From positions 2,399,595-2,463,594 of the forward strand of contig CBDHCM010000006.1 of assembly GCA_965261105.1 (NCBI GenBank): a DNA stretch of 64,000 nucleotides, given 5' to 3'. A model generated the notes under the pieces. It did not search any database, was not told the DNA's origin, and worked only from the letters and a program-made list of their open reading frames with translations. Position numbers and translations under genes: made by a program. This DNA is from Candidatus Aldehydirespirator sp. GTDB taxonomy: Bacteria; Actinomycetota; Acidimicrobiia; Acidimicrobiales; Aldehydirespiratoraceae. This document shows, piece by piece, positions 24,801 through 44,360 of this stretch (positions are counted from its first letter, which is position 1; each line of letters begins with the position of its first letter).

Positions 24801-26213
24801 TCAGGCCAGGTCCGGGGCTATGGGGTTGAGGGCGAGGAGATCCTCGATCACCGCGAGAGTCTCGAGCACGGCCAGGTCGTCGAGTTGGTGGCCCACGACT
24901 TGCAGGCCGATCGGTACACCCTCGCTGCTGAATCCGCAGCACACCGTGCCGGCCGGGCGCCGAGTGAGGTTGGCCAGGGGCGTGAACCGGAACCAGTTGG
25001 GAGTCTCCTCGCCGTTGACGGTGCCGTGCCCGCCCGGCGCGGGAGCCTGGCCCGCGAGCGTCGGCATGAGCAGCACGTCGTAGCCGTCCATCGCCTCCGC
25101 GAGAGCCACAGACAGCTCGCCGGCCTGCCGGCGGGCCTCGTACAGCGATACCGCGGTGACCCGTTCGTAGACGTCCTCCAGCATCCGGGCGAGCACGTCG
25201 GTCACGTTGGCCCACTCGTCGGTGCCGTACAGCGAACGGAACACAGGACCGATCAGCCCCCCGAAGAACAGCTGAAGGAAGACCCCGGGCACCGACCCGA
25301 ACTCCGTCTGAGCCTCGACGACGTCGGTGCCCTCGGCCGCCAGACGGTCCACCGCGGCCGCGCAGGCCGCGGCGATCTCGGAGTCGACCGGACCGCCGTC
25401 GATCGACGGAGCCCACAGCACCCGGGCCGGGACGCGGGGGCTGTCGAGCGCGGCCCGCCAGGAAACCCCCGGCGCAGGCAGGCTGCGCAGGTCGGCCGGG
25501 TGGGGGCCGACCACCGCATCGAGACACAGGGCCACGTCGCGGATGAGTCGCGCCATCGGTCCCACGCATGACAGATCGATCAGGCCCGACGGCGGTGGAC
25601 CGCTCGGCACCCGGCCGTGGCTGGTCTTGAGGCCCGACAGTCCGCATATCGCCGACGGGATCCGGATCGAGCCTCCCCCGTCGGAGCCGGTCCCCACCGG
25701 GACCATGCCCGCGGCTATGGCGGAGCCGGTCCCGCCCGACGACCCGCCCGGGGAGCGCTCAAGGTTCCACGGATTGAGCGTGGCCCCGAACCGGGGGTTG
25801 TAGGTGTCGCCCATGCAGCCATGCTCGGGGGTGTTGGTCTTGCCCAGCACCACGCAGCCCGCGGACCGCAGCCGGGCAACCTCGGTGCAGTCGGAGACAG
25901 CCGGCGCGGCGCCGCGGGTGTACATGGCGCCCTTGCTGGTGTGGAACCCGGTCGCGTCGACGAGATCCTTCACGCCGATCGGGACTCCCGCCAGCGGCCC
26001 GACATCGTCGCCGGCATCGATTCGCGCGTCGATCGCGGCGGCCTCGGACCGTGCTGCGTCGGCGTTCACCGCGACGAAGGCGTTCAGCACGCCGTTGAGA
26101 GCCTCGATGCGCTCCAGCGCGTGCTCGGTGACCGCGGCGGCAGTGAGGGTGCGGTCCCGCACCATCGCCGCGAGGGCCTCCACCGTCACGGTTCGGAAGT
26201 CGGGTACGTCCAT
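24801..26213 (-). CDS. amidase (amidase-signature family)
   Basis: [36 protein letters not shown] (AS signature with the Ser-cisSer-Lys triad context). Confidence 0.85.
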
Positions 26214-26322
26214 TGCCTCAAACCTTTCGTGGAGGGGAAGGAGTCCGCTGATGGGAAGCCCGCCGATGGGCGGTGCGCCGGAATGGCCGGCGGCACGCCC
26301 GATGGCGGCGCCGATGATTCAA

Positions 26323-27717
26323 TCAGGCATCGGCGCCGGCGACGAGCCGCTGCACCAACCGCTCGAGGCCGGCAACTCGCGATCCCTTGACCAGCACGGC
26401 GTCGTCGGCGCCCAGACCGCCGAGGTCGCGCAGCGCGGCGAGGGCGCCGTCGACGCCCTCAACATCGGTGACGTCGGCGTCGCCCCGGGAGTACCCGGGA
26501 GCGTCGACCGCGACCACTCGCACCGCGAGCTCCGCGGCCAGCGAGCCGATGGCGGCGTGTTCGGTGGCCTCGAACTCCCCCAGCTCGGCCATGACGCCCA
26601 CGACGGCGATCCTGCGGGCCGCCGCCAGCGCGGCCAGGGAGTGCAGGGCCGCCCGCATCGACAGCGGGTTGGCGTTGTAGCAGTCGTTGAGCAGGAGCGC
26701 GCCGCCGGCGGCACGAACGACTTCCATGCGCAGCGGCGACAGCGCCGGCTCGGCCAATCCGGCGGCCACGTCCTCCAGCGAGGCCCCGAGCTCCAGGGCG
26801 GCCGCGGCCGCGGCCAGCGCGTTGTCGACCGAGTGCAGTCCCCTGGCCCCCAGCGTCACGGCACACTCGCCTGCGGGGCTGCGCAGGACGAAGCGCGGGA
26901 TCAGGTCGTCGCCGAGCGTCAGCTCCCCGGCCGCCACCTCGCCGCCGAGCCCGAAGGTGACCACCCGGGCGTCGGTGCTCGATGCCATGGCCGCTACTTC
27001 GGGCACCCCCGCGTTGAGGAAGGCCACGCCGCCCCCGCCGGCACCGGGAAGCGCCTCGACCAGCTCCCGCTTGGCCGCCACCACCGCGGCCAGAGAACCG
27101 AGCTCGCTGGTGTGGGAGAGGCCCACAGTGGTGACCACGCCCATGGTCGGCCGGGCCACGGCGCAGAGCCGGGAGATGTGCCCCGATCCCCTCGAGCCCA
27201 TTTCGACCACCAGCGCCTCGGTGCCCGTCGGAGCGGACAGCAGCGTGATCGGCACTCCGATCTCGTTGTTGAACGACCGGGTGCTGGCCCACACCCTCCG
27301 GTCTCCAGCCAGCACCGCAGCCAGCAGATCCTTGGTGGTGGTCTTGCCGGCCGATCCGGTCACACCCACCACCGGCACCGCCCCGAGGCGGCGGCGGGCC
27401 TGATGTGCGAGCGCGGCGAGGGCCTCCAGGGTGTCGCCCACTTCCACGGCCGCGGCGCCGGCCGCGACCGGACCTCGGGCGGTGAGGTAGGCGGACGCTC
27501 CAGCCGCGACCGCGTCGGCAATGAAGTCGTGACCGTCGCGCTCAGCCACCAGCGGCACGAACAGCATGCCCGGCCGCACGTCGCGGCTGTCCTGGCTCAC
27601 TCCGTCGACCGCAGTGGCGCCGTCGCCGTGCAGGCGGCCCCCGGTGGCCTCGGCGATCTCGGCCAGCGTCCAGCGCACGGCGCGAGTGTGACACGCGCCC
27701 GGCGATGACGTCGCCAC
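26323..27717 (-). CDS. murF: UDP-N-acetylmuramoyl-tripeptide--D-alanyl-D-alanine ligase
   Basis: VGVTGSAGKTTTKD, NNEIGVP, NDCYNANP, LVKGSR. A more likely start is GTG 27678 (VRWTLAEIAEATGG). Confidence 0.85.
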   Translation of the reverse strand: MATSSPGACHTRAVRWTLAEIAEATGGRLHGDGATAVDGVSQDSRDVRPGMLFVPLVAERDGHDFIADAVAAGASAYLTARGPVAAGAAAVEVGDTLEALAALAHQARRRLGAVPVVGVTGSAGKTTTKDLLAAVLAGDRRVWASTRSFNNEIGVPITLLSAPTGTEALVVEMGSRGSGHISRLCAVARPTMGVVTTVGLSHTSELGSLAAVVAAKRELVEALPGAGGGGVAFLNAGVPEVAAMASSTDARVVTFGLGGEVAAGELTLGDDLIPRFVLRSPAGECAVTLGARGLHSVDNALAAAAAALELGASLEDVAAGLAEPALSPLRMEVVRAAGGALLLNDCYNANPLSMRAALHSLAALAAARRIAVVGVMAELGEFEATEHAAIGSLAAELAVRVVAVDAPGYSRGDADVTDVEGVDGALAALRDLGGLGADDAVLVKGSRVAGLERLVQRLVAGADA

Positions 27718-27824
27718 CTGAGCGGTCTGTCCAGCGCCCTTCTCAACGCCCTGCCCGGCTCCCGCTCGCCGTCCGGGCAGCGCCCGCGCGGGGGCGACAC
27801 CCGCCCGGCGCTAGCGTCGCCGCC

Positions 27825-28979
27825 GTGGAGGACCGCAGGATCAGGCTGGTGGTGCTGTTCGGGGGGCGCTCCGCCGAACACGACGTGTCGTGCGTGTCGG
27901 CCCGCCACGTGGTGGCTGCCGCCGACCCGCGAAAGTACGTCGTCGAGGCGGTCGGCATCACCCGGGACGGCCGCTGGGTGAAGGCCGCGGAGGCGATCGA
28001 GGCCCTGAGCGCCGGCCCGGACGCGCTGCCCGAGCGGCTCAGCGCCGTCGGCCCCGAGGTGCAGCCCCTGCCCGCGCTGAGCACCGACTCAGAGCTTCGC
28101 AGCGCAAGCCGCAGCTCCAACCCTGGCGGTCCCACGGTTGTGCTGCCCATCCTTCACGGCCCTATGGGCGAGGACGGAACGGTGCAGGGCCTGCTGGAGC
28201 TGGCCGGGGTCCCCTACGCCGGAGCTGGTGTGCTGGCCTCGGCGCTGTGCATGGACAAGACCGCGGCCAACACCATGCTGGCCCAGGCCGGGATCGCCCA
28301 CACCCGCTGGCGCGCCGTCACCGTCGACGACCCCCACGCAGGCGACACCGATCTGGCGGCGGTCCTTGACGCCATGATCGAGGACTTGGGCCTGCCCGTG
28401 TTCATCAAGCCCGCAAGCATGGGATCCTCGGTCGGAGTCTCCAGGGCTTCGACCCGCCCGCAGGCGGCCGAGGGTCTGCGCCTCGCCTCGCGCTATGACC
28501 GCAGCATCGTCGTGGAGGAGGAGGCCCGGGCCCGGGAGATCGAAGTCGCCGTCTTGGGCAACGACCACCCCGAGGCGAGCCTGCCCGGCGAGATCGTCCC
28601 GGGCGCGGACTTCTACGACTACGCCGACAAGTACGACGACGGTGCTGAACTGGTGATTCCGGCCCCCCTCGACGACGACGAGGTCGCCACGTGCCGGCGC
28701 ATCGCCATAGACGCCTACCGGGCTCTGCGGGTGGAGGGGCTGGCCAGGGTCGACTTCCTGTACGAGGACGGCCGCGACGGCCGCGGCGACCGGGGCTGGC
28801 TGGTAAGCGAGCTCAACACCATGCCGGGCTTCACGCCCATATCGATGTACCCCAAGCTCTGGGCGGAGAGCGGCCTCGGCTACCCGCAGCTCATCGACCG
28901 GCTGGTGGACCTGGCCCTGGAGCGTCACGCCCGGCTCCAGCGCCACACTCTCACCGACCCGGCCACCCCGGCGTCGTGA
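27825..28979 (+). CDS. ddl: D-alanine--D-alanine ligase
   Basis: RLVVLFGGRSAEHDVS, HGPMGEDGTVQGLLE, KPASMGSSVGV, ELNTMPGFT. GTG 27825 chosen; the track start 27705 adds an Arg/Pro-rich extension overlapping murF. Confidence 0.85.
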   Translation: MEDRRIRLVVLFGGRSAEHDVSCVSARHVVAAADPRKYVVEAVGITRDGRWVKAAEAIEALSAGPDALPERLSAVGPEVQPLPALSTDSELRSASRSSNPGGPTVVLPILHGPMGEDGTVQGLLELAGVPYAGAGVLASALCMDKTAANTMLAQAGIAHTRWRAVTVDDPHAGDTDLAAVLDAMIEDLGLPVFIKPASMGSSVGVSRASTRPQAAEGLRLASRYDRSIVVEEEARAREIEVAVLGNDHPEASLPGEIVPGADFYDYADKYDDGAELVIPAPLDDDEVATCRRIAIDAYRALRVEGLARVDFLYEDGRDGRGDRGWLVSELNTMPGFTPISMYPKLWAESGLGYPQLIDRLVDLALERHARLQRHTLTDPATPAS

Positions 28980-29106
28980 GCTTCGGGCGGGCGCGCCGAC
29001 CGGGGCGGGAGCACCCCGGCCGCGCCGAATCGGGCGCCGTCGTGAGCCTCCGGCGCCCGCGGCCACTAGAACTCGTGAGCCTCCGGCGCCCGCGGCCACT
29101 AGAACT
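28975..29106. repeat. 33-bp tandem repeat x4 (two diverged + two exact) beginning in the ddl stop codon
   Basis: Exact units CGTGAGCCTCCGGCGCCCGCGGCCACTAGAACT at 29041-29073 and 29074-29106. CGTGAGC also spans the ddl TGA at 28975, 66 bp (2 units) upstream. Confidence 0.85.
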
Positions 29107-29112
29107 AACGGC

Positions 29113-31587
29113 GTGATCACCGAGTCTCTAGCCGGAAAGCGCATCGCCGTCACCGGCGCGACCGGGTTTCTGGGGACCGCGCTCACCGAGCGTCTGCTGC
29201 GCTGCGTGCCCGACTGCGAGCTGGTGCTGTTGGTGCGCCCGGGTCGGCGCGGCGCGGCCGCGCGGGTGCAGCGCGACGTGCTGCGCTACGACGCCTTCGA
29301 CCGACTCCGAGAGGAGATGAAGCAGCCGGACGCGGCCGAGACCTACAACGAGATGACAGCCCGGCGGGTCAAAGCCCTCGCCGGGGACGTGAGCACCGAC
29401 GGGCTCGGACTCGACGACGAGGGCCGGGCCCTGCTCGCCAGTTGCGACATCGTGATCCACTCGGCGGCCACCGTGAACTTCGACTCGGCCCTCGACGACG
29501 CCGTGGAGGTCAACCTGCTCGGACCGGCCCGGGTGGCCGAGGTGCTGAACGAGGAAGGCTCTGAAGCGCACCTGGTCGCGGTGTCCACCTGCTATGTGGC
29601 CGGCAGCCGGCGGGGCGCCGCGCCCGAGCAGATGGTGGACGAGTCGCCGTTCTTCACCGACGTCGGCTGGCGCGAGGAGGTCGCCAGTGCCCGCCGGGCC
29701 CGCCGAGACGCCGAGCAGGCCAGCCGCAGCCCCGAGCGCCTGGCCGCGCTGTCGGCCCAGTCCCGCCGGGAGCTGGGCGCAGCAGGCACACCGGCGCTGT
29801 CGGAGAAGGTGGAGAGCCTGCGCCGCCGCTGGGTGAACGAACAGATGACCGTGGCCGGCCGGGCCCGGGCAGCCAGCCTCGGCTTCCCCGACGCCTACGC
29901 CTTCACCAAGGCCCTGGGCGAGCGGGCCCTGGCCGAGACCCGCGGCGACATCGCGGTGACCATCGTGAGGCCCTCGATCATCGAGTCGGCCCTGGCCGAT
30001 CCCTATCCGGGATGGATCCGGGGATTCCGCATGGCCGAGCCGGTGATCGCGGCCTACGCCCGGGGATTGCTCAAAGAGTTCCCCGGGGTGCCCGAGGGCA
30101 TCGTCGACGTGATCCCGGTGGATCTGGTGGTGGCCACGATCCTGGCCGTGGCCGCCCGGGGCCCTGTCGATCCCAGCCCCGACGTCATCCAGATCGCCAG
30201 CGGCTCCATCAACCCGCTGAAGTACGGCACGTTGTTCGACCTGGTGAGCGGATGGTTCACCGAGCACCCCGTGTACGACGCGCACAACCAGCCGATCCCC
30301 GTGCCGCGCTGGTCTTTCCCCGGCCGCGGCAGGGTGGCCCGGCAGCTCCAGCGAGTCCAGCGCTCGCTGGAAACCGCCGACCGAGTGCTGTCCGCGCTGC
30401 CGCTGAGGGGACGCCACGCCGTGATGAGCGCCACCCTCGAAGAACGCCGCCTTCAGCTCGAGCGGGCCAGCGACTACGTCAAGCTCTACGGCGCCTACGC
30501 CGAGTGCGAGGCCATCTATCAGCTGGACCGCCTCATGGCGCTGTGGGACTCGCTCGACGACGCCGACCGCTCCGCATTCTGCTTCGACCCTCGCATCCTG
30601 GACTGGACCCACTACGTGCAGGAGGTGCACCTGCCGTCGATGGTGCAGCAGGCCCGTCTGAAGATGGCGCCCGGGGCAGGGGCAGGCCGGACTGAGTCCC
30701 GCTCGGCCCGGCTGCGCCGCCAGGTGCTGGCGCCGGAGCGCCACCTAGCCGTGTTCGACTTGGAGAACACGCTCATCGCGTCGAACGTGGTGGCCAGCTA
30801 CGCGTGGCTGGCCACCCGGCAACTCGGCGACCTCGACCGGGTGCGCTTCGTGACCCGCACGCTGGCGGAGGCGCCGAGGCTGCTCGCCTTGGACCGCCGC
30901 GACCGCAGCGACTTCCTGCGCTACTTCTACCGGCGCTTCGAGGGGGCCTCGAAGGACCGCATCGACGCCGACTGCGTGGAGATGCTCAGCGACCTGATAA
31001 TCACCAAGTCGTTCCCCCAGGGGATCCGGAGGGTTCGCGAGCACCGCCAGGCGGGCCACACGACCCTGCTCATCACCGGGGCGCTGGACTTCGTGGTGGC
31101 ACCGCTGCGGCCCCTGTTCGACCACATCGTGGCCGCGGAGATGGGGTCGAGCGACGGCGTCTACGACGGCCGCCTCACCGCCGTCCCCCCGACCGGCGAG
31201 GCCCGCTACCAGACGCTGGCCGACTTCACCGACCTCCACGGCCTCGACCTGCGGGAGTCGGTGGCCTACGCCGACAGCACATCGGACCTGCCCATGCTGG
31301 AGGCGGTCGGCTTCCCGGTGGCGGTCAACCCCGAGACCAAGCTGGCCGCGCTGGCCCGGAGGCGGGGCTGGCTGATCGAGCACTGGTCCACCAGCGCCGG
31401 CGCACCGGCCAAGCTTCTGCCGATGGCGCCCCGCATCCGCGGCCGAGCCCGTCCCGCTGCTCTAGCCGGATCCGCCGGCCTGCGGAAGTCCGCTGCTCTA
31501 GCCGGATCCGCCGGCCTGCGGAAGTCCGCTGCTCTGGCCGGATCCGCCGGCCTGCGGAAGTCCGCTGCTCTAGCGGGGTCCGCCTGA
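29113..31587 (+). CDS. fusion protein: fatty acyl-CoA/ACP reductase (NAD_binding_4, 'male sterility' type) + HAD-IB hydrolase
   Basis: N-terminal VTGATGFLG, IHSAATVNF, YAFTKALGE (Y..K), RPSII. C-terminal AVFDLENTL (DxD-type HAD motif I), LITGAL, YADSTSDLPML. Repeat-encoded tail. Confidence 0.8.
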   Translation: MITESLAGKRIAVTGATGFLGTALTERLLRCVPDCELVLLVRPGRRGAAARVQRDVLRYDAFDRLREEMKQPDAAETYNEMTARRVKALAGDVSTDGLGLDDEGRALLASCDIVIHSAATVNFDSALDDAVEVNLLGPARVAEVLNEEGSEAHLVAVSTCYVAGSRRGAAPEQMVDESPFFTDVGWREEVASARRARRDAEQASRSPERLAALSAQSRRELGAAGTPALSEKVESLRRRWVNEQMTVAGRARAASLGFPDAYAFTKALGERALAETRGDIAVTIVRPSIIESALADPYPGWIRGFRMAEPVIAAYARGLLKEFPGVPEGIVDVIPVDLVVATILAVAARGPVDPSPDVIQIASGSINPLKYGTLFDLVSGWFTEHPVYDAHNQPIPVPRWSFPGRGRVARQLQRVQRSLETADRVLSALPLRGRHAVMSATLEERRLQLERASDYVKLYGAYAECEAIYQLDRLMALWDSLDDADRSAFCFDPRILDWTHYVQEVHLPSMVQQARLKMAPGAGAGRTESRSARLRRQVLAPERHLAVFDLENTLIASNVVASYAWLATRQLGDLDRVRFVTRTLAEAPRLLALDRRDRSDFLRYFYRRFEGASKDRIDADCVEMLSDLIITKSFPQGIRRVREHRQAGHTTLLITGALDFVVAPLRPLFDHIVAAEMGSSDGVYDGRLTAVPPTGEARYQTLADFTDLHGLDLRESVAYADSTSDLPMLEAVGFPVAVNPETKLAALARRRGWLIEHWSTSAGAPAKLLPMAPRIRGRARPAALAGSAGLRKSAALAGSAGLRKSAALAGSAGLRKSAALAGSA
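31456..31587. repeat. 36-bp in-frame tandem repeat x3.6 forming the C-terminal tail (AALAGSAGLRKS)n of the reductase-HAD fusion
   Basis: GCTGCTCTAGCCGGATCCGCCGGCCTGCGGAAGTCC units at 31456, 31492 and 31528, with a partial unit at 31564 ending in TGA, which overlaps the next ATG (TGATG). Confidence 0.95.
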
Positions 31588-33200
31588 TGGCCGCTGAGCA
31601 CCACAAGACGCCTCGCCCGGGGCTGGTACTGGAAGTCGACCGGTCCACCCCGCCGGTCCTGTTCCACCACGGCGACGGCTTCCGCCTGGAGAGGCTGCCC
31701 GCGGGTCGCAGCCGGGTGATCTATCCGGCCGAGCCCGTCGCGGGCCTCGCCGACCCGGAGGCGGCCATCCGCGACGCCCTGCTGAACCCGCTCGACTCCG
31801 ACCCGCTGCCGGCGCTGTTGCGTCCGGGGATGAAGCTGACGATCGCCTTCGACGACGTGTCGCTGCCGCTGCCGCCGATGCGGCGGCCCGACATCCGCGA
31901 GCGAGTTGTCGAGCAGGTCCTCGACATGGCGGCCGCCGCGGGGGTGGACGACGTGCACCTGATCGCGGCGCTGGCCCTGCACCGCCGCATGACCGACGAC
32001 GAGCTGCGCCACGCCCTGGGCGAGCGGGTGTTCGACGCTTTCGCCCCCCAGGGGGCGCTGTACAACCATGACGCCGAGGATCCCGACGGCATGGTCGTTC
32101 TAGGCCGCACCGACCACGACGAGTTGGTCACCATGAACCGGCGGGCCGCCGAGAGCGACCTGCTGGTGTACGTGAACATCAACCTGGTGGCCATGGACGG
32201 GGGCTGGAAGTCCACGGCCACGGGCCTGGCCGACTACCGGGCGCTGCGCCACCACCACAACGTCCGCACCATGCAGCAGTCGCGCTCGTTCATGGACCAG
32301 CCCCGCTCGGAGCTGCACCGCTCCAACTGGCGCCAGGGAGAGGTGATCAAGTCCAACGGGCCCCCGATCTTTCAGATCGAGACCACCGTCAACAACAACA
32401 CCTTCGGACGGGACGGACCCCTGGCCGTGCTGCAGAAGCGCGAGTGGGAGTGGACGGTGAAAGACCGGGCCTCGTTCATGGCCATGCAGGCCGGGCTCAA
32501 GGCGATGCCCCCCTCGGGCCGCCGGGGCGTGTTCGGCCGCTGGCTGGCGCCCTATGAGTTGACTTCGGTACAGGCCGGGGCGGTGGAGGCGGTCCACGAG
32601 AGCACCACCGCCAATGTCATGGCCCAGCACCTGGTGCCGGTGAAGGGCCAGACCGACGTGCTCACCATGGGGCTGCCCTACATCTGCCCCTACAACGTGA
32701 ACTCGGTCATGAATCCGATCCTGGTGATGTGCCTGGGCCTCGGGTACTTCTTCAACCTGTACCGGGGCAAGCCCTTGGTGCGCGAGGGCGGCGTGGTCAT
32801 CATGAGCCACCCGACCCGATGGGAGTTCCACCCCGTCCACCATCCCAGCTACATCGACTTCTTCGAGCAGCTCCTGGCCTCCACCACCGACCCGGTCGAA
32901 CTCGAGGCCAAGTACGAGGAGCAGTTCGCCACCGACGAGTGGTACGTGCACCTGTACCGCACCAGCTACGCCTACCACGGTGTGCATCCCTTCTACATGT
33001 GGTACTGGGGGGCGCATGCCCTGCAGTGGCTGGGCCGGGTGATCGTGGTGGGCGGCGATCCGAGGGCAGTGCGCAGGATGGGCTTCCAGCCCGCCTCGAC
33101 CCTGTCGGACGCCCTGGAGATGGCCGGCGACGTGGTGGGGCCGTCGCCCACGATCACCCACCTGCACAACCCGCCGATCCTCATGGCCGACGTGGAGTGA
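31587..33200 (+). CDS. LarA-like protein (lactate racemase N-terminal domain / DUF2088 family)
   Basis: NPLDSDPLPALLRPGMKLTIAFDDVS, IAALALHRRMTDDEL, YNHDAEDPD, LLVYVNINLVAMDGGWKS...HHHN follow the DUF2088 pattern. 537 aa. Confidence 0.75.
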   Translation: MAAEHHKTPRPGLVLEVDRSTPPVLFHHGDGFRLERLPAGRSRVIYPAEPVAGLADPEAAIRDALLNPLDSDPLPALLRPGMKLTIAFDDVSLPLPPMRRPDIRERVVEQVLDMAAAAGVDDVHLIAALALHRRMTDDELRHALGERVFDAFAPQGALYNHDAEDPDGMVVLGRTDHDELVTMNRRAAESDLLVYVNINLVAMDGGWKSTATGLADYRALRHHHNVRTMQQSRSFMDQPRSELHRSNWRQGEVIKSNGPPIFQIETTVNNNTFGRDGPLAVLQKREWEWTVKDRASFMAMQAGLKAMPPSGRRGVFGRWLAPYELTSVQAGAVEAVHESTTANVMAQHLVPVKGQTDVLTMGLPYICPYNVNSVMNPILVMCLGLGYFFNLYRGKPLVREGGVVIMSHPTRWEFHPVHHPSYIDFFEQLLASTTDPVELEAKYEEQFATDEWYVHLYRTSYAYHGVHPFYMWYWGAHALQWLGRVIVVGGDPRAVRRMGFQPASTLSDALEMAGDVVGPSPTITHLHNPPILMADVE

Positions 33201-33460
33201 CCGGGCCATGCCGCGCGACGCCAACACCACCATGGCCGACGCCGGAGTGACCGGGCCATGCCGCGGGACGCCAACACCACCATGGCCGACGCCGGAGTGA
33301 CCGGGCCATGCCGCGGGACGCCAACACCACCATGGCCGACGCCGGAGTGACCGGGCCATGCCGCGGGACGCCAACACCACCATGGCCGACGCCGGAGTGA
33401 CCGGGCCATGCCGCGGGACGCCAACACCACCATGGCCGACCTGGAGTGACCGGGAGGGGG
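33182..33460. repeat. 50-bp tandem repeat x5.5 spanning the LarA-like stop and the PlsC-like ribosome-binding site
   Basis: Units at 33182 (49 bp), 33231, 33281, 33331 and 33381, plus a partial at 33431. Each has CATGGCC...GGCCATG (7-bp hairpin), GGAG, TGA and ATG. The last unit runs into GGGAGGGGG-N7-ATG 33468. Confidence 0.95.
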
Positions 33461-33467
33461 TGAGCTG

Positions 33468-34421
33468 ATGGGGATCGCGCACGACCTCGGCCTGGTGCGG
33501 ATGGGGCGCCGTCTGCCGTCGCCGGCGCGCGCCCTGCGGGCTCGCACGTTCCCGCTGCGGGCGCCCAACGTCCCGCGAGGGGTGAAGCCACCGGAGACGC
33601 CGGGCCGCCTCGGCGCCGACTACGACACCGATTGGGCTCGCCGCTGGCCGGCCCGGATGTGCCGGGCCGCGATCCTCGAGGGTCCGATGCGGGCCATGGT
33701 GCAGGTGCTGGCCTCGCCCAGCCGCCGCGGCGCCGACCGGCTGGCCGATCTGGACGGCCCGTTGATCTTCGCGGCCAACCACCACAGCCACATCGACACT
33801 CCCCTGCTTCTCACGTCGATCCCCGAGCCGTGGCGCCACAAGATCGTGGTGGGCGCGGCCGCCGACTACTTCTTCGGCACCAGGGTGTCCGGCGCGGTCG
33901 CCGCCCTGGTGAGCGGGGCCATCCCCATCGAGCGGGCCCGGGTGGGCCGCCGCTCCGCTGACCTCGCCGCGGGGCTGATCGACGGCGGATGGAGCCTGCT
34001 GATCTACCCGGAGGGCGGGCGCAGCCCCGACGGCTGGGGACAGCCGTTCCGGGGCGGGGCCGCCTACCTGTCGGTGCGCTGCGGAGTGCCGGTGGTGCCG
34101 ATCCACGTCGGCGGCACCGGCAGCATCCTGCGCAAGGGCCGCACGATGCCCAAGCCCGCCGAGGCCACCGTGACCTTCGGCACTGCGTTGAGGCCCGACG
34201 AGGGCGAGCGGGCCCCCCGGTTCGCGGCCCGGATCGAGGCCGCCGTGACCGCTCTGGCCGACGAGGCCGGCACCGACTGGTACTCGGCCCGCAAGCGGGC
34301 CCACGCCAGCACGAGCGGCACCCTCACCGGCCCCGACGCGGGGGTCTGGCGCCGCCAATGGGCCCTGGGCGGCCGCCGCCGCACCCCGTCGACCCGCTCC
34401 CGCCGCTGGCCCGACCTGTAG
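33468..34421 (+). CDS. lysophospholipid/glycerol-phosphate acyltransferase family protein (PlsC-like)
   Basis: FAANHHSHIDTP (HX4D block), YPEGGRSPDG (block III), VPVVPIHV. Confidence 0.8.
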   Translation: MGIAHDLGLVRMGRRLPSPARALRARTFPLRAPNVPRGVKPPETPGRLGADYDTDWARRWPARMCRAAILEGPMRAMVQVLASPSRRGADRLADLDGPLIFAANHHSHIDTPLLLTSIPEPWRHKIVVGAAADYFFGTRVSGAVAALVSGAIPIERARVGRRSADLAAGLIDGGWSLLIYPEGGRSPDGWGQPFRGGAAYLSVRCGVPVVPIHVGGTGSILRKGRTMPKPAEATVTFGTALRPDEGERAPRFAARIEAAVTALADEAGTDWYSARKRAHASTSGTLTGPDAGVWRRQWALGGRRRTPSTRSRRWPDL

Positions 34422-35211: not shown

Positions 35212-37524
35212 ATGGCTGTGTTTGCTAGTACTCCGGTCGAGTTGATCGAGGGCGTGTACGCCACGCTGGACGAGCGGGTGGGGCGGGCCCGGGAGAGCTT
35301 CGGGCGGCCGCTGACGCTGGCCGAGAAGATCCTGGTCAACCATCTGGATGCCTCTGAGACCGGGGTGCCCGAGCGGGGCGTGTCGTATGTGGACCTGCGC
35401 CCGGACCGGGTGGCCATGCAGGACGCCACCGCGCAGATGGCGTGGCTGCAGTTCATGACCGCGGGGCTCGACGAGGTGCGGGTGCCCACCACCACCCACT
35501 GCGACCACCTGATCACCGCCCGCACCGACGCCAGGCGCGACCTGCTGGCCGCGCTGTCGGGCAACGACGAGGTGTACGAGTTCCTGCGCAGCGTGTGCGC
35601 CCGCTACGGCGCCGGCTTCTGGAAGCCCGGCTCGGGCATCATCCACCAGGTCGTGCTGGAGAACTACGCCTTCTGTGGCGGGATGATGATCGGCACCGAC
35701 AGCCACACCCCCAACGCCGGCGGGCTGGCCATGGTGGCGGTTGGCGTGGGCGGCGCCGACGCGGTGGACGTGATGACCGGCTTCCCGTGGAACGTTCGCT
35801 GGCCCGAGTTCATCGGCGTGCGCCTCACCGGCGAGCTGAGCGGCTGGAGCGCCCCCAAGGACGTGATCCTCAAGGTGGCCGACATCCTCACCGTGGCCGG
35901 CGGCACCGGCGCCATCGTCGAGTACTTCGGTCCCGGCGCGCGGTCGCTCAGCGCCACCGGCAAGGCCACGATCTGCAACATGGGCGCCGAGATCGGCGCC
36001 ACCACCTCGATCTTCGACTACGACGAGTCGATGGGCCGCTACCTGCGGGCCACCGGCCGCGCCGAGGCCGCCGACCTGGCCGACTCGGTGGCGGACCACC
36101 TGTGCGGCGACCCCGAGACCGAGGCCGACCCCGAGCGCTTCTACGACCGGGTGGTGGAGTTCGACCTCGACGCCCTCGGGCCCCACATCAACGGCCCCCA
36201 CACCCCGGACCTCGCCCGCGAGGTCGCCGAGCTCGGTGACGAGGCCCGCGACCGCGGCTGGCCGCTGGAGATCAGCGCCGCGCTCGTCGGGAGCTGCACC
36301 AACTCGTCATATGAGGACATCACCCGAGCCGCCTCCATCGCCCGCGACGCGGCGGCCAAGGGCCTGCGGGCCCGCACCCGGCTGCTGGTGACCCCCGGAT
36401 CCGAGCAGATCCGCTCCACCATCGTGCGCGACGGTCTGATGGACGACTTCGAGACCCTCGGCGCGACCGTGCTGGCCAACGCCTGCGGGCCCTGCATCGG
36501 CCAGTGGGACCGCTCCGGAGACGCAGGCCACACACCAGGCCGGCCCAACGTGATCGTCACCTCCTACAACCGCAACTTCCCCAAGCGCAACGATGGAGAC
36601 CCGGCCACGCTCGCCTTCGTCACGTCGCCCGAGACCGTGATCGCGCTGGCATTGGCCGGCACCGTCGACTTCGACCCGATCAGCGGCAAGCTGACCAACG
36701 ACGACGGCGAGGCGGTGGCATTGGCCGAGCCGTCCGGCATAGAGCTGCCCCCCGACGGATTCGATCCCGGTGAAGACACCTTCGTGGCCCCGCCCGCGGA
36801 CGGCGCCGCCGTCGAGGTCGGGGTGTCGCCGGACTCCGAGCGCCTCCAACTGCTCGAGCCCTTCGCCCCCTGGGACGGGCGCGACTATGAGGATCTGCCG
36901 GTCATCGCCAAGGCCAGGGGCAAGTGCACCACCGACCACATCTCCGCGGCCGGGCCGTGGCTGCGGTACCGGGGCCACCTGGAGAACATCTCGGGCAACC
37001 TGTACCTGGGGGTGGTCAACGCGTTCAATTCCTCTGACGACCATCACGGATACGAGGTCGGCCACGGCCGCAACCAGCTCACCGGTGTGGTCCAGTCCCT
37101 GCCCGACATCGCCCGCGAGTACCACGCCGCCGGGCTGCGCTGGGTGTTCATCGGGGACTCCAACACCGGCGAGGGCTCCAGCCGGGAGCACGCAGCCATG
37201 GAGCCCCGGTTCCGGGGCTGCGTGCTGGCGCTGGCCCGCAGCTTCGCCCGCATCCACGAGACCAACCTCAAGAAGCAGGGCGTGCTGGCGCTGACGTTCG
37301 CCGATCCCGCCGACTACGAGCGCATCGGCGAGGACGACCGCCTGGCCGTGCGGGGACTGGCGGACCTCGCGCCGGGGCGGCCGGTGACGGTGGAGGTCAC
37401 TGCGCCCGGCGGCGCAGTCTGGACCTTCGAGGGATGCCACACCCTCAGCGCTGAACAGATCGAATGGTTCCGAGCCGGGAGCGCTCTGAACATCATCCGC
37501 AGCCGCGCCGACAGCAACCTATGA
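35212..37524 (+). CDS. acn: aconitate hydratase, mitochondrial-type (~770 aa)
   Basis: RPLTLAEKILVNHLD, DRVAMQDATAQMA, GTDSHTPNAGGLA, SCTNSSYED, ANACGPCIGQW, SYNRNFPKRNDG, GDSNTGEGSSREHAA. Length and N-terminus match the mitochondrial ACO2-type rather than the ~890-aa AcnA. Confidence 0.9.
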   Translation: MAVFASTPVELIEGVYATLDERVGRARESFGRPLTLAEKILVNHLDASETGVPERGVSYVDLRPDRVAMQDATAQMAWLQFMTAGLDEVRVPTTTHCDHLITARTDARRDLLAALSGNDEVYEFLRSVCARYGAGFWKPGSGIIHQVVLENYAFCGGMMIGTDSHTPNAGGLAMVAVGVGGADAVDVMTGFPWNVRWPEFIGVRLTGELSGWSAPKDVILKVADILTVAGGTGAIVEYFGPGARSLSATGKATICNMGAEIGATTSIFDYDESMGRYLRATGRAEAADLADSVADHLCGDPETEADPERFYDRVVEFDLDALGPHINGPHTPDLAREVAELGDEARDRGWPLEISAALVGSCTNSSYEDITRAASIARDAAAKGLRARTRLLVTPGSEQIRSTIVRDGLMDDFETLGATVLANACGPCIGQWDRSGDAGHTPGRPNVIVTSYNRNFPKRNDGDPATLAFVTSPETVIALALAGTVDFDPISGKLTNDDGEAVALAEPSGIELPPDGFDPGEDTFVAPPADGAAVEVGVSPDSERLQLLEPFAPWDGRDYEDLPVIAKARGKCTTDHISAAGPWLRYRGHLENISGNLYLGVVNAFNSSDDHHGYEVGHGRNQLTGVVQSLPDIAREYHAAGLRWVFIGDSNTGEGSSREHAAMEPRFRGCVLALARSFARIHETNLKKQGVLALTFADPADYERIGEDDRLAVRGLADLAPGRPVTVEVTAPGGAVWTFEGCHTLSAEQIEWFRAGSALNIIRSRADSNL

Positions 37525-37530
37525 GCCACC

Positions 37531-37584
37531 CATGGCGGCAGGACCCCGCATAGCGGCAGGACCCCGCATGGCGGCAGGATCCCG
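37531..37584. repeat. 18-bp tandem repeat x3 (CATGGCGGCAGGACCCCG) starting 7 nt after the aconitase stop
   Basis: Three units with 1-2 substitutions, read directly. Confidence 0.9.
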
Positions 37585-37763
37585 CGTGGCCGACGCCATC
37601 AGGCGCATCGTGCGGAGCGAGGCGGCGAACCAGCCCCACATCCACGCCGTGCAGTCGCGCCCACAGCAGACGGCCGCGGCGCGGTCCTCGCATCTACGAT
37701 GACCACTATGCTTACAGCATGCGCTGATCGGTTGGCACCGCCTCGCGTCGCAGCGTCTCATTT

Positions 37764-37864
37764 CCCGCTCTTGTTCGCTGCGCTCACGGGCCGCTCGGGC
37801 CGCGGCCTCGCTCAGCGCATCGCGAGGTCCTCGTGAACCCTGGCCAAACCGCCCGGTCTCTGAC
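37764..37864 (+). repeat. dispersed ~100-nt intergenic element, copy C (intact)
   Basis: CCCGCTCTTGTTCGCTGCGCTCACGGGCCGCTCGGGCCGCGGCCTCGCTCAGCGC... aligns with copy B along its length. Overlaps the GTG start proposed for the carboxyltransferase. Confidence 0.85.
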
Positions 37865-39224
37865 AGCCTCTCAGACGACCACGATCGGCATCCGCGCCGG
37901 GGCCTCCGGGTTCGTCCACAGCCGTGTGACGGCCATCGGCGCCCGGACCGTCGTCGAGATCGACGCCCGCGGGTCTGAGGAGAACCGCAGCAGAGCGCTG
38001 ACGCCCGCCGACGGCCAGAGCATGGCCGCCGCAGCCTGCCTGGCCCGCACACAGCGGCTTCCGGTGGTGCTGAGGCTGGCATCCTCCGGCGCCGACCTCA
38101 ACGCCGGGGTCGCCGCCCTCCACGGCTGGGCCACCGCGGCCGCGGAGCTGGCTCGCTGCTCGGGGGTAGTGCCGGTGATCGTGATCGCGGCCGGACCCAA
38201 CGTCTCGGGCCCGGCCCTGCTGCTGGGCTTGGCCGACTTCGTGGTGATGACCGCCGACGCCTATGCCTTCGTGGTAGGGCCCCAGATGGTGGAGCACTTC
38301 ACCGGTATGCCCGTAGACCGCGACGAGCTGGGCGGCGGCGAGACCCACTCCGTCACCTCGGGCGTGGCCAGCTTCCTGGCCGCTGACATGTCCGAGGCCG
38401 ACGAGATAGCGGCCGAGCTGCTCGGCTACCTCCCTGACAGCAACGACTCCGACCCGCCCGCCCGGGTGTGCACCGATCCTGCCGACCGGGCTGTGCCCGA
38501 GGCCTTCGAGGTGCTGCCGGCCGAGTCGGGGGGAGCCTACGACGTGCGCGACGTGCTGGCCGCGGTCGCCGACCACGGCGTGCTGCTGGAGCCTCACACC
38601 TACTGGGGCGCCAACCTGGTGACCGCGTTCGCCTCCTTGGGGGGGCGGCCCGTCGGGATCGTGGCCAACCAGCCCCAGTCGCTGGCCGGGACGCTCGACA
38701 TCACCGCCTCCCGCAAGGGCGCCCGCTTCGTGGCCTTCTGCGACGCGTTCAACCTTCCGCTGGTGACCTTCGTCGACACGTCCGGCTTCTACCCGGGCAA
38801 AGACCTGGAGTGGCGGGGAATGATCCGCTACGGGGCCCAGCTGGCGTTCTCCTATGCACGGGCCACGGTCCCCCGAGTCAATGTCACCCTGCGCAAGTCC
38901 TACGGCGGCGCGTACATCGTGATGGACTCCAAGCCGATGGGCAACGACGTGGCCCTGGCGTGGCCCACGGCCGAGATCGCGGTGATGGGAGCCAAGGGGG
39001 CGGTGGAGATCCTGCACCGGTCGGCCGGCGCGGCCGAGCGGGCTGCGATGGAGGCGGCCTACGAGCAGCGCCTCCTGAACCCGTACGCCGCCGCGGATCG
39101 CGGCGCCATCGACTCGGTGATCGAGCCGGCCGACACGCGGCGGGAGATCTGCGCCGCGCTGGAGATGCTCGTCTCCAAGCGGGAGCGCCTGCCCCGGCGA
39201 CGCCACGACAACGCCCCGCTGTAA
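37833..39224 (+). CDS. acyl-CoA carboxylase carboxyltransferase (beta) subunit
   Basis: GGGETHSVTSGVA, IVANQPQSLAGTLDITASRKGARFV, FCDAFNLPLVTFVDTSGF, RKSYGGAYIVM. The start is uncertain because it lies in a repeat element. Confidence 0.8.
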   Translation: MNPGQTARSLTASQTTTIGIRAGASGFVHSRVTAIGARTVVEIDARGSEENRSRALTPADGQSMAAAACLARTQRLPVVLRLASSGADLNAGVAALHGWATAAAELARCSGVVPVIVIAAGPNVSGPALLLGLADFVVMTADAYAFVVGPQMVEHFTGMPVDRDELGGGETHSVTSGVASFLAADMSEADEIAAELLGYLPDSNDSDPPARVCTDPADRAVPEAFEVLPAESGGAYDVRDVLAAVADHGVLLEPHTYWGANLVTAFASLGGRPVGIVANQPQSLAGTLDITASRKGARFVAFCDAFNLPLVTFVDTSGFYPGKDLEWRGMIRYGAQLAFSYARATVPRVNVTLRKSYGGAYIVMDSKPMGNDVALAWPTAEIAVMGAKGAVEILHRSAGAAERAAMEAAYEQRLLNPYAAADRGAIDSVIEPADTRREICAALEMLVSKRERLPRRRHDNAPL

Positions 39225-39612
39225 CGCCACGATCGGCGCCCCGAAACAAGCGCCCGCTGCAACAGAACCGCCTTACACACCCCGCCATAACGCCCCGAAA
39301 CAAGCGCCCGCTGCAACAGAACCGCCTTACACGCCCCCCGCCATAACGCCCCGAAACAAGCGCCCCCCTGCAACAGAACCGCCTTACACGCCCCCCGCCA
39401 TAACGCCCCGAAACAAGCGCCCGCTGCAACAGAACCGCCTTACACGCCCCCCGCCATAACGCCCCGAAACAAGCGCCCGCTGCAACAGAACCGCCTTACA
39501 CGCCCCCCGCCATAACGCCCCGAAACAAGCGCCCCGCCGAAAAAGCCCCCATATGTGCGCCCTGCTGCAAAAGCCTCGACAAATGCGCTCCGGCCATAAA
39601 CGCCCCGCTGTA
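39210..39612. repeat. ~56-bp tandem repeat x~6.5 between carboxyltransferase and gltA, bracketed by a 14-nt direct repeat of the carboxyltransferase 3' end
   Basis: Units CGCCCCGAAACAAGCGCCCGCTGCAACAGAACCGCCTTACACGCCCCCCGCCATAA start at 39237, 39291, 39347, 39404, 39460 and 39516, plus a diverged last unit. AACGCCCCGCTGTA occurs at 39210-39223 and 39599-39612. Confidence 0.9.
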
Positions 39613-39614
39613 GT

Positions 39615-40940
39615 GTGATGACCGATGATGGCCAGCATGACGATCACCGCCGCCGGCCGAACGGGGTGTATCGCGTGACTGAGAGCATCACCATCACCGA
39701 CAACCGCAGCGGGAGCAGCATCGAGATCCCGATCGTCGCGGGCGGCGTCGACTCCGCGGCCTGGCGCAAGCTGCTGCCAGGCGTCTGGTTCCACGATCCG
39801 GGGCTGGCCACCACCGCGGTCACCTCCAGCGCGGTGGCCCAGATCGACGGCGAGGCCGGCATCCTGCGCTACCGCGGCTACCCCATCGAGCAGCTGGCCG
39901 AGCACAGCACGTTCCCGGAGGTCGCCCACCTCCTCATTTACGGGGAGCTGCCCACCCAGGCCGAGCTCGACGAGTGGGTGCACGAGATAACCCGGCACAC
40001 GTTCATCCACGAGAACTTTCGCAAGCGCGTCTTCGACGCCTTCCACTACGACGCCCACCCGATGGGGTTGCTCACCTCGGGCGTGGCGGGCCTGTCCACC
40101 TTCTATCCCGAGGCCAAGGACATCTTCGACCCCGACAATCGCAGGGCGCAGATCGTCCGCTTGATCGCCAAGATGCCCACGCTGGCCGCGGCGGCCTACC
40201 GGTTCTCGAGGGGCCTGCCGTTCATCTTCCCCGACAACGCCCACGACTACCCGGAGCGCTTTCTGAAGATGATGTTCGACGTCGGCGGCGACTACGAGCC
40301 CGACGAGGCCCTCGTGCGGGCCATGCGGGTGCTGTTCATCCTGCACGCCGACCACGGCCAGAACTGCTCCACCACGGCGACCCGCGTTGTCGGGTCGAGC
40401 CACGCCGACCCCTACACCGCTATCGCGGCCGGCTGCGCCGCCCTCTACGGGCCGCTGCACGGAGGGGCCAACGAGGCCGTGATCAACATGCTGAATCAGA
40501 TCGGCACCTTCGACGAGGTCGACAGCTTCATCGCCGGCGTGAAGCGGGGCGGGCACCGGCTGATGGGATTCGGGCACCGCGTGTACAAGAACTACGACCC
40601 GAGGGCGGTCATCATCAAGGAGGCGGCCCACGACGTGTTCGCGGTGATCGGCAAGAACCCGCTGCTCGACATCGCCCTCAAGCTTGAGGAGGTCGCGCTG
40701 GCCGACGACTATTTCGTGAGCCGGCGCCTGTACCCGAACGTGGACTTCTACTCGGGCCTCATCTACCAGTCGCTGGGCTTCCCCACCAACATGTTCACCG
40801 TGCTGTTCGCCATTGGCCGCACCCCCGGGTGGCTGGCCCACTGGAACGAGCTGATCGAGCAGAACTCCCGGATATACCGGCCCCGCCAGGTCTACGTGGG
40901 CGCCGAGCGGCGCGACTACGTGGCGATGTCAGACCGCTAG
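39615..40940 (+). CDS. gltA: citrate synthase
   Basis: GILRYRGYPIEQL, LHADHGQNCSTT, GPLHGGANE, GFGHRVYKNYDPR, NVDFYSG. Confidence 0.95.
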   Translation: MMTDDGQHDDHRRRPNGVYRVTESITITDNRSGSSIEIPIVAGGVDSAAWRKLLPGVWFHDPGLATTAVTSSAVAQIDGEAGILRYRGYPIEQLAEHSTFPEVAHLLIYGELPTQAELDEWVHEITRHTFIHENFRKRVFDAFHYDAHPMGLLTSGVAGLSTFYPEAKDIFDPDNRRAQIVRLIAKMPTLAAAAYRFSRGLPFIFPDNAHDYPERFLKMMFDVGGDYEPDEALVRAMRVLFILHADHGQNCSTTATRVVGSSHADPYTAIAAGCAALYGPLHGGANEAVINMLNQIGTFDEVDSFIAGVKRGGHRLMGFGHRVYKNYDPRAVIIKEAAHDVFAVIGKNPLLDIALKLEEVALADDYFVSRRLYPNVDFYSGLIYQSLGFPTNMFTVLFAIGRTPGWLAHWNELIEQNSRIYRPRQVYVGAERRDYVAMSDR

Positions 40941-40991
40941 CGGACCCGCGGCCAGTCTTCGCGAGAAGCGGCGTATATCGCCACAGAGCGC

Positions 40992-41023
40992 GAAGAACGC
41001 GGTCTATCCGCTCGGCCTCTAGG
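40992..41023 (+). repeat. partial copy (3' module) of the dispersed element
   Basis: GAAGAACGCGGTCTATCCGCTCGGCCTCTAGG. The terminal CTAG again supplies the stop codon of a minus-strand gene (qor). Confidence 0.7.
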
Positions 41024-42002: not shown

Positions 42003-42069
42003 GGTGATTCTCCCATCGATGCCGCCGTCAGGTATAGCGGCATGCTGCATCCGTGCCGCCGCCTCCGGC

Positions 42070-43843: not shown

Positions 43844-44200
43844 TCAGTCGCCGGCGGCGCCGGCCTCGTTGCGAGCCAGGTCGTGGTGGCGGATGACCTC
43901 GTCGATCACGAATCGCAGGAACTTCTCACTGAAGGACGGGTCGAGGTTCGCCGCTGCGGCCAAGTCGCGCAGCCGGGCGATCTGCTGCTCCTCGCGCTGG
44001 GGGTCGGCGGGCGGCAGTCCGACGCTCGCCTTGTAGACGCCGATCTGCTTGGTGACCTTGAACCGCTCCGCGAGCAGCAGAATCAGCGCGGCGTCGATGT
44101 TGTCGATGCTCGACCGGTACCCGGCCAGCGTCTCGTCCTCGGCGCCTGCACTCACAGCTAGGCAAGCTATCGCCCACCAGGGACGGGAGCGCCTGTTCAT
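43844..44200 (-). CDS. chorismate mutase (AroQ class)
   Basis: YRSSIDNIDAALILLLAERFKVTKQIGVYKASVGLPPADPQREEQQIARL...FLRFVIDEVIRHH. The start (ATG 44200) lies in a duplicated segment, so it is uncertain. Confidence 0.7.
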   Translation of the reverse strand: MNRRSRPWWAIACLAVSAGAEDETLAGYRSSIDNIDAALILLLAERFKVTKQIGVYKASVGLPPADPQREEQQIARLRDLAAAANLDPSFSEKFLRFVIDEVIRHHDLARNEAGAAGD

Positions 44201-44259: not shown

Positions 44260-44360
44260 CAAGACGACCAAGGCCTGCTCTGAATTCACAGCCGACCGGA
44301 GCCTGCCCGACCCGGCATGGGACCGACCCACCCCACGGGCCGGCTATACCACGGCGAACT

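Follow-up and report, generated by a model that had tools for sequence, protein, structure and literature searches.

A three-gene operon of an Acidimicrobiia bacterium resembles the core of the myxobacterial elb ether-lipid cluster and contains a LarA homologue

The elbABCDE cluster of Myxococcus xanthus (MIBiG BGC0000871), which runs from MXAN_1531 (elbA) to MXAN_1527 (elbE) (PMC13012113), was defined genetically. Disruption of elbD or elbE lowers both the alkyl and the vinyl ether lipids, wild-type cells contain a fatty aldehyde that elbD mutants lack, and the acyl-CoA synthetase (ACS) and acyl carrier protein (ACP) activities of ElbD were confirmed (review PMC9131029). The same 2022 review describes elbC as coding 'a protein of unknown function' (PMC9131029). 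MXAN_1529 is listed in LarAH group 15, a myxobacterial group, in the dataset of Desguin et al. 2020 (PMC7583248), and since MXAN_1531 to MXAN_1527 are elbA to elbE, elbC is MXAN_1529 and encodes a homologue of the lactate racemase LarA. Here, a stretch of 64,000 nucleotides from Candidatus Aldehydirespirator sp. (assembly GCA_965261105.1, contig CBDHCM010000006.1, positions 2,399,595 to 2,463,594 of the forward strand), hereafter the window, was analysed for an operon at positions 29113-34421, whose three genes encode a fatty acyl reductase (FAR) fused to a HAD-IB phosphatase, a LarA homologue and an acyltransferase.

Two further bodies of work are relevant for comparison. Desguin et al. (Sci Rep 2020, PMC7583248) split the LarA homologues into 25 groups, and their Table S1 associates group 14 (Frankia, Kribbella, Ilumatobacter) with COG0204 acyltransferase, COG0560 HAD and COG1063 (88% each) and with COG3320 reductase (50%), group 15 with COG0451, COG0560 and COG1022, and group 16, which is without the lysine, with COG0204 and COG0560. 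The function of group 14 is listed as 'unknown', and the main text mentions neither lipids nor elb (PMC7583248). The second is the AGPS-dependent pathway of animals (FAR1, GNPAT and AGPS) and of M. xanthus (MXAN_1676-1674, an operon of AGPS, a FAR-acyltransferase fusion and a NAD-type reductase), whose FAR and HX4D acyltransferase belong to the families that are also present in the window. In that pathway the flavoenzyme AGPS makes the ether bond, and neither the window operon nor elb contains an AGPS; the LarA homologue together with the HAD domain would occupy the AGPS slot of the gene set.

The domain order of the M. xanthus locus, read directly from its record, is Epimerase (ElbA), HAD PF12710 (ElbB), Lar_N (ElbC), ElbD with NAD_binding_4-Sterile-AMP-binding-PP-binding-Acyltransferase, and Epimerase (ElbE). 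The window operon has the same four catalytic domain families, and in both cases the genes are tightly packed and co-directional. Using BLASTP, the LarA homologue (gene 2) was 50.5% identical to ElbC (MXAN_1529) over 525 aa, the FAR region of gene 1 (aa 2-510) was 29% identical to residues 9-539 of ElbD (E 4e-41), the HAD region of the same gene (aa 546-755) was 34% identical to residues 6-217 of ElbB, its full length (E 4.5e-30), and the acyltransferase of gene 3 (aa 99-229) was 34% identical to residues 1265-1394 of ElbD (E 1e-19). Two family models are shared as well: ElbC passes NF052592 with 849 bits, as does the gene 2 protein with 883.3 bits (cut-off 740, model positions 2-520), and ElbB passes TIGR01490 with 135 bits, as does the window HAD domain with 106.5 bits (cut-off 98.3). 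NF052592 is named 'NPN-dependent hydroxyacid isomerase, LarAH14/15/16 family', where NPN is the nickel-pincer nucleotide, the cofactor of lactate racemase.

In terms of roles, the HAD-IB phosphatase is encoded by elbB and by the C-terminal half of gene 1, the LarA homologue by elbC and by gene 2, the FAR by the N-terminus of elbD and the N-terminal half of gene 1, and the AGPAT-like acyltransferase by the C-terminus of elbD and by gene 3. Gene 1 is a predicted counterpart of the N-terminal FAR domain of ElbD plus ElbB, and gene 3 putatively corresponds to the acyltransferase domain at the C-terminus of ElbD. The ACS and ACP in the middle of elbD and the NAD-epimerase-type reductases of elbA and elbE are absent from the window operon. 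Its architecture also differs, in that the FAR is fused to the HAD domain and not to ACS-ACP-acyltransferase, the acyltransferase is free-standing, and there is no multidomain ElbD (FAR-ACS-ACP-AGPAT in one protein), the FAR and the acyltransferase being on separate proteins. Its host is a Gram-positive-lineage actinobacterium. By this comparison the operon is a predicted Acidimicrobiia version of a domain-shuffled elbB-elbC-elbD core. Compared to the elb ether-lipid cluster, it is a putative variant with a new architecture and, as an instance, one more of the tabulated LarAH14 neighbourhoods.

An earlier note on this DNA, made from the sequence alone, had proposed the operon as a candidate for a lipid pathway not yet characterised and had compared it to ElbD. 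The analogy is now stronger than noted, as elb itself contains a LarA homologue (ElbC, 50%) and a HAD-IB phosphatase (ElbB, 34%). As to the pathway, the operon does map to the genetically defined elb, but there ElbC is without an assigned role and the ether-forming step is not known, and the statement of the note that a LarA-type protein has no described role in such a context is still true.

On balance, we consider it probable that the module is an elb-type operon that makes fatty-alcohol- or aldehyde-derived glycerolipids, probably 1-O-alkyl (ether) glycerolipids. Reductase and acyltransferase chemistry is generic, however, and the module might instead make or remodel another fatty-alcohol, aldehyde or hydroxy lipid (a wax-ester-type lipid, a long-chain 1,2-diol or a 2-hydroxyacyl lipid), with the LarA homologue epimerising a hydroxyl of the acyl chain or of the head group. 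Such a product would agree with the missing ACS-ACP and ElbA/ElbE parts of elb, with the lack of an AGPS-like ether synthase among the annotated genes of the window, and with the fact that the characterised LarA-family enzymes invert hydroxyl-bearing carbons. All four domains, on the other hand, match elbB, elbC and elbD specifically, with 50% identity to ElbC and a common equivalog model, and we regard another lipid as rather unlikely. The fatty-alcohol- or hydroxyacid-containing lipids that had been noted next to ether lipids remain as alternative products.

To evaluate conservation, a genome collection was scanned, in which at least 595 stretches encode a relative of the LarA homologue, and the best 80 loci (L001-L080), all seemingly from Acidimicrobiia, were analysed. 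The nearest relatives are metagenome-assembled genomes (MAGs) labelled Acidimicrobiales/Acidimicrobiaceae, and further relatives include 'Candidatus Poriferisocius' MAGs; the LarA-like proteins of L001-L004 are 91-92% identical to that of the window. One additional locus (L081), a low-coverage and independent contig from another sample, is 99.8% identical to the window. FAR and HAD segments were found upstream of the LarA homologue and on the same strand in 71 of the 73 evaluable loci, and in 70 of these 71 they were contiguous and fusion-like. An acyltransferase was present no more than 400 bp downstream in every evaluable locus (77/77). Synteny of the trio had been proposed as a check and is borne out by these counts, with the co-occurrence already contained in Table S1 of Desguin 2020. 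The link between LarAH14 and its neighbours was itself published in that supplement, and the link to elb is the addition of the present analysis. No paper was found that links DUF2088/LarA with elb, ElbD or ether lipids in a search of incomplete coverage, so that the link may exist elsewhere, and a 2026 preprint on sponge ether lipids mentions neither Acidimicrobiia nor LarA.

Among the four domains, conservation was highest for the LarA homologue in 73 of 76 loci; its median identity to the window was 75%, compared to 63% for the FAR, 68% for the HAD domain and 62% for the acyltransferase. Across Acidimicrobiia its identity is 71-92%, and it is approximately as conserved as the neighbouring aconitase, a level more in line with a catalytic protein that the cell cannot do without than with a passenger. 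In 39 of the 80 loci (L022 and within the L026-L080 range), an extra polyol-type zinc alcohol dehydrogenase of ~400 aa (COG1063-like) lies between the FAR-HAD gene and the LarA homologue; its best NCBIfam similarities, all below cut-off, are to idonate, scyllo-inosose, threonine and galactitol-1-phosphate dehydrogenases. This operon-type dehydrogenase is absent from the lineage of the window and is not part of elb. The group 14 clusters of Frankia, Kribbella and Ilumatobacter share with the window the LarA subgroup (residues D, L/I, H, gap, K, H) and the COG0204 acyltransferase, COG0560 HAD and COG3320/COG0451 reductase neighbours, and most of them also carry the COG1063 zinc alcohol dehydrogenase that the window is without. 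A zinc alcohol dehydrogenase at 41019-42050 (- strand) was considered as a displaced operon dehydrogenase and rejected; it is shorter than the operon type and carries ADH_zinc_N_2, and a tblastn search with the operon-type dehydrogenase of relatives (L026) found nothing in the window. Other elb parts were rare in the relatives, with an AMP-binding/PP-binding domain in one of the 80 loci and none in the window operon, and an ElbA-like gene several kb away in five of the 80, no ElbA or ElbE homologue being present in the window operon.

The gene 2 protein (537 aa, 31587-33200, + strand) is a LarA homologue of the LarAH14/15 (ElbC) type according to Pfam Lar_N (E 2.2e-37) and NF052592. In an AlphaFold2 model (pLDDT 89, pTM 0.90) it is predicted to have the two-domain LarA fold with Lar_N. 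The top PDB match to the model was 9Q3K (TM-scores 0.77/0.86), alongside 9Q3J, both of the LarA_Sp/LarA_Bw group, and canonical LarA structures ranked next (TM-scores of ~0.62/0.77). LarA_Sp and LarA_Bw (LarAH group 17; 9Q2U, 9Q3K and 9Q3J; Gatreddi et al. 2025) are thus the closest solved structures (sequence E 2e-36), at an identity of only ~20-22%.

Active-site residues were mapped by sequence alignment to the solved holo-enzyme LarA_Sp (9Q2U) and interpreted according to Gatreddi et al. 2025 (PMC12611868). The codon of D90 (31854-31856) corresponds to the NPN ribose-binding Asp (D73 in LarA_Sp, D72 in the L. plantarum enzyme LarA_Lp), and that of H132 (31980-31982) to the single catalytic histidine retained (H115 in LarA_Sp, H108 in LarA_Lp). 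The loop NINLVAMDGGWK (32175-32210) contains K208 and N197/N199. K208, in the GGWK motif, aligns with Lys195 of LarA_Sp (K184 in the canonical enzyme), the lysine that forms the covalent thioamide to NPN, and N197/N199 align with Asn185 of LarA_Sp, in the region of H174, the second catalytic histidine of the canonical enzyme. The codon of H224 (32256-32258), in an HHH cluster, corresponds to the nickel-coordinating histidine (H211 in LarA_Sp, H200 in LarA_Lp). The earlier note had left open whether the GGWK lysine and a histidine of the cluster are cofactor residues, and the alignment of K208 and H224 with the NPN lysine and the nickel histidine of 9Q2U answers this in favour of the assignment. 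The nickel histidine of LarA_Sp is given as His211 in section 2.4 and as His221 in section 2.5 of PMC12611868; the alignment to 9Q2U fits 211, which is the position of the covalent lysine plus 16, as in LarA.

Two ligand-proximal residues are also retained (Y369 for Tyr307 and H467 for His401 of LarA_Sp), and others are lost: P368 replaces the ligand-proximal His306 of LarA_Sp, and L93 replaces the phosphate/carboxylate-binding Lys76 of LarA_Sp and Arg75 of LarA_Lp. What the protein has in common with LarA_Sp and LarA_Bw is the lysine for NPN, the histidine for nickel, a single catalytic histidine, a loop with Asn where H174 would be, and the Tyr307/His401-type residues of the C-domain; it differs from them in K76 (L93) and His306 (P368). 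Their genomic context is glycolytic or sugar metabolism and not lipid (PMC12611868). With canonical LarA (L. plantarum, 5HUQ) it has in common the two-domain fold, Lar_N and the equivalents of K184, H200, H108 and D72; it is ~110 aa longer and lacks H174 (absent or Asn at that position) and the carboxylate-binding pair, R75 being L93 by alignment and K298 an Asn by the published group 14 signature. That signature keeps D72, H108, K184 and H200, has a gap at H174 (Table S3) and replaces R75 and K298 (PMC7583248). Judged by these residues, the gene 2 protein is predicted to belong to the cofactor-competent class and cannot be a classical two-base 2-hydroxyacid racemase. The single catalytic histidine and the missing carboxylate clamp also speak against a classical inversion of a 2-hydroxyacid, a point against the other-lipid alternative.

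Retention of these residues was further evaluated in the family. D90, H132, K208, H224, Y369 and H467 are invariant in 24 aligned sequences, consisting of the window protein and 23 close and ElbC-type relatives. For family diversity, 72 full-length representatives at 50% identity (within P0121-P0270) were used, of which 31 keep H132, K208 and H224, and D90 is invariant among the family members retaining the cofactor residues. The other 41 have lost H132, K208 or H224 and kept the fold; they are 31-59% identical to the window protein (P0122 being the one at 59%) and look like a large set of probable pseudo-enzyme paralogues, resembling Desguin's group 16. The LarA homologue could accordingly be imagined to have no catalytic role and to act as a scaffold or as a regulatory subunit in a complex of the FAR-HAD protein and the acyltransferase, the more so as the lysine-lacking group 16 is found in a COG0204/COG0560 context too. 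Since the window protein and its 23 aligned relatives keep all six residues, and no other protein of the operon is as conserved as the LarA homologue, we consider a scaffold very unlikely and favour a catalytic ElbC-type protein. The contexts of distant representatives (P0122, P0124, P0128 and P0156) were on contigs of 2-3.5 kb and uninformative. A fusion check of 150 family representatives detected P0194 (947 aa), a LarAH14/15-like domain with a chlorophyll a/b-binding domain, which suggests an ElbC-type protein in a eukaryotic alga or a fused gene model, and is probably a eukaryotic gene model; it was not used as evidence. P0188, a C-terminal LarA-homologue fragment joined to an acyltransferase, was a single case at a contig edge that could be a frameshift and was likewise set aside.

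Gene 1 (29113-31587, + strand, GTG start) encodes the fusion of FAR and HAD-IB phosphatase, with a length of 824 aa. Its FAR catalytic domain, of the 'male-sterility' type (NAD_binding_4, aa 13-343, 29149-30141; Pfam E 2.5e-55), contains the motifs GATGFLG (29155-29175) and YAFTK (29896-29910, the Tyr/Lys motif), which are conserved among the relatives in the forms GxTGFLG and YxxTK. The C-terminal 'Sterile' domain of the FAR (aa 450-505, 30460-30627) is a weak match to PF03015, with 30.1 bits below the gathering score of 35.4, and ElbD is on record with a similarly weak match. The HAD-IB phosphatase domain (aa 545-743, 30745-31341), which is also matched by Pfam HAD PF12710 at aa 546-730, has FDLENTL as motif I (30754-30774), with Glu replacing the usual second Asp, and a YADSTSD motif (31267-31287). 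Motif I reads DLE[NH]T in 80/80 loci, with the nucleophile Asp kept and Glu at Asp+2; in ElbB of M. xanthus it is the canonical DVDGT. At its 3' end, gene 1 runs into a 36-bp tandem repeat of 3.6 copies (31454-31584) that codes for the final ~43 aa, a C-terminal tail of AALAGSAGLRKS repeated about four times.

Gene 3 (33468-34421, + strand) encodes a PlsC/AGPAT-like HX4D acyltransferase of 317 aa (Pfam PF01553, E 4e-15) with the motifs NHHSHID (HX4D, 33777-33797), YPEGGRS (EGxR, 34005-34025) and VPVVPI (34086-34103); the first two are conserved, and the forms kept across relatives are NHxSHxD and FPEGGRS. The protein is below the cut-off of the PlsC model TIGR00530 (41.8 vs 102.95 bits), and it is predicted to be PlsC-like and not a canonical PlsC. 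The three plus-strand genes and their domain calls (FAR-HAD, LarA-like and HX4D acyltransferase), first described in the earlier note, were recovered with open reading frames (ORFs), Pfam and NCBIfam, and reading of the sequence likewise confirmed the junctions it had described. The gene 1 stop and the gene 2 ATG overlap as TGATG (31585-31589, + strand). Genes 2 and 3 are separated by 267 nt. This gap is filled by a 50-bp tandem repeat of 5.5 copies (33182-33454), which already takes up the final 19 nt of gene 2, and the gap ends in a strong Shine-Dalgarno-like GGGAGGGGG (33452-33460, + strand), which contains GGGAGG and lies 7 nt before the gene 3 ATG.

This repeat-filled gap was considered as an operon-specific element and rejected. 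In the closest relatives (L001-L004) the gap is 20-60 nt long and without the repeat array, which is specific to the lineage of the window, and nearly perfect tandem repeats, their units being 17-56 bp long, are spread over the whole window, several at or next to gene ends (5026-5095, 13934-14023, 21930-21998, 29040-29106, 31454-31584, 33182-33454, 37531-37590, 39237-39534, 44387-44748 and 47855-48150), so that the repeats are a property of the genome and not of the operon. The array at 29040-29106 is a 33-bp repeat of two copies between ddl and gene 1. Comparing the window with L081, the 50-bp array is of equal length and the copy number of the 56-bp array (39237-39534) is off by one, and the arrays look like loci of the variable number tandem repeat (VNTR) type. 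A promoter and terminator scan of 27.4-35.4 kb gave no sigma-70-like sites and terminator-like matches at background rate, and was uninformative at 70% GC (the GC content of the window is ~70%).

For the proposed elb-type operon, the steps would be as follows. The FAR domain would act on a fatty acyl thioester and reduce it to the aldehyde or the alcohol, the acyltransferase would acylate a glycerol-phosphate backbone, and the HAD domain would strip a phosphate off either the product or an intermediate. The LarA homologue might oxidise a secondary alcohol transiently in a redox-neutral reaction, in which a hydride is taken up by NPN and then returned. Its substrate would not be a 2-hydroxy acid, and would probably be a phosphorylated glycerol-type, lipidic, non-carboxylate intermediate. 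The chemistry of this step is inferred only.

A bolder version, in which ElbC/LarAH14 is the missing ether-bond-forming enzyme of an AGPS-independent bacterial ether-lipid pathway, is chemically coherent, and we nevertheless judge it to be quite unlikely. In this version the nickel-pincer cofactor would act by 'hydrogen borrowing' and take the C2 hydride of (1-acyl-)glycerol-3-phosphate, and oxidation of glycerol-3-phosphate or 1-acyl-glycerol-3-phosphate at C2 would give the ketone that AGPS chemistry requires. The transient ketone would activate C1, so that the acyl group could be exchanged for the fatty alcohol made by the FAR, or reductive etherification with the FAR-made aldehyde could take place. 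The hydride would then be returned to C2, or the zinc alcohol dehydrogenase or ElbA/ElbE would reduce the remaining ketone. One histidine would suffice because no inversion is needed, and a carboxylate clamp would not be needed. The minimal three-gene operon without a separate ketoreductase would fit, as would the polyol-type dehydrogenase or the reductase of the short-chain dehydrogenase/reductase (SDR) family carried by the four-gene and the myxobacterial operons.

Several points weigh against a catalytic, ether-lipid-making module. Purified LarAH14 of Frankia (Franean1_4168) was inactive in seven racemase/epimerase assays, including that for lactate (PMC7583248). The FAR and acyltransferase activities of ElbD were not reconstituted in vitro, and elbC itself was not mutated, according to the review (PMC9131029). 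An elbD homologue is no guarantee of ether lipids, as in Pontiella (PMC11868695), and no paper reporting ether lipids in Acidimicrobiia was found in a literature search. In the window itself, the ElbD ACS-ACP part and the ElbA/ElbE reductases are missing from the operon, Glu substitutes the general acid/base Asp in HAD motif I, and larB, larC and larE were absent among the called genes checked, which cover ~2.7-63 kb of the window. The literature, searched for lar genes of Myxococcus, Frankia or Acidimicrobiia, was of no help here. In the family, the loss of H132, K208 or H224 in 41 of the 72 representatives means that catalysis is not family-wide.

The gene upstream of the operon is ddl (27705-28979, + strand), encoding a D-alanine--D-alanine ligase (NCBIfam NF002528, 400 bits vs cut-off 262). 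The homology begins at approximately ORF residue 44, which places the probable true start near 27834. A Mur-ligase-family gene (26323-27717, - strand) and an amidase gene (24801-26213, - strand) are divergent from ddl. In the low-coverage L081, the region equivalent to 24801-27717 is broken into small ORFs and its domain annotation differs. D-lactate for the cell wall is supplied by LarA in Lactiplantibacillus plantarum. With ddl directly upstream and the Mur-ligase gene divergent from it, the LarA homologue could in the same way serve the cell wall, supplying a D-2-hydroxyacid such as D-lactate to both. This was rejected as extremely unlikely on account of the type of the ligase, the loose linkage, the inactivity of the Frankia protein and the missing carboxylate residues. 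The Ddl is of the ordinary D-Ala-D-Ala type, reaching 199 bits against a cut-off of 550 with the D-Ala-D-Lac model. The ddl gene stands right next to the FAR gene in only 10 of 67 evaluable loci, with 55 of the 67 having it somewhere in the 10 kb upstream, and the COGs associated with the groups of Frankia and of myxobacteria do not include it. LarAH14 of Frankia is without lactate racemase activity, and the carboxylate-binding residues are missing. With adjacency in 10 of 67 loci and an ordinary ligase, the description of the operon as 'ddl-linked' is weak and a functional link is not supported; ddl is a lineage-specific upstream neighbour and not a demonstrated part of the module.

Other features of the window were recorded as side observations. 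Downstream of the operon, a central-metabolism block (35212-43833) contains aconitase, carboxyltransferase, citrate synthase, the zinc alcohol dehydrogenase and an AceK-type isocitrate dehydrogenase kinase/phosphatase (42070-43833, - strand); AceK is mostly known from Proteobacteria. The region of ~44000-64000 is lower in GC (0.59-0.66 from 48 kb on, compared to ~0.70 elsewhere) and looks like a mobile and defence island, with insertion sequence (IS) transposases (45274-47103, - strand, and 59991-61334, + strand), a DUF222-HNH endonuclease gene with an internal 21-bp repeat of 14 copies (47170-49071, - strand), McrBC-like genes (49168-51997, - strand) and a PLD-like gene (55565-56491, - strand).

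The comparison joins two orphans, namely the role of ElbC in the elb operon and the substrate of the single-histidine LarA homologues (groups 14 and 15), for which glycerol-phosphate or lipid intermediates become a candidate substrate class, as the ElbC family becomes a candidate for the missing Elb step. If the ether-forming version were true, ElbC/LarAH14 would functionally replace the flavoenzyme AGPS plus the alkyl-dihydroxyacetone phosphate reductase, and this would be the first role of the nickel-pincer cofactor in a lipid pathway and its first use on a non-hydroxyacid substrate. Ether lipids that have so far escaped notice would then be expected in Acidimicrobiia, Frankia and other aerobic Actinomycetota. 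Non-isoprenoid alkyl glycerol ethers are environmental biomarkers with debated bacterial sources, and the abundant marine, sponge-associated and wastewater Acidimicrobiia, including relatives of Microthrix, are predicted as organisms that may make them.

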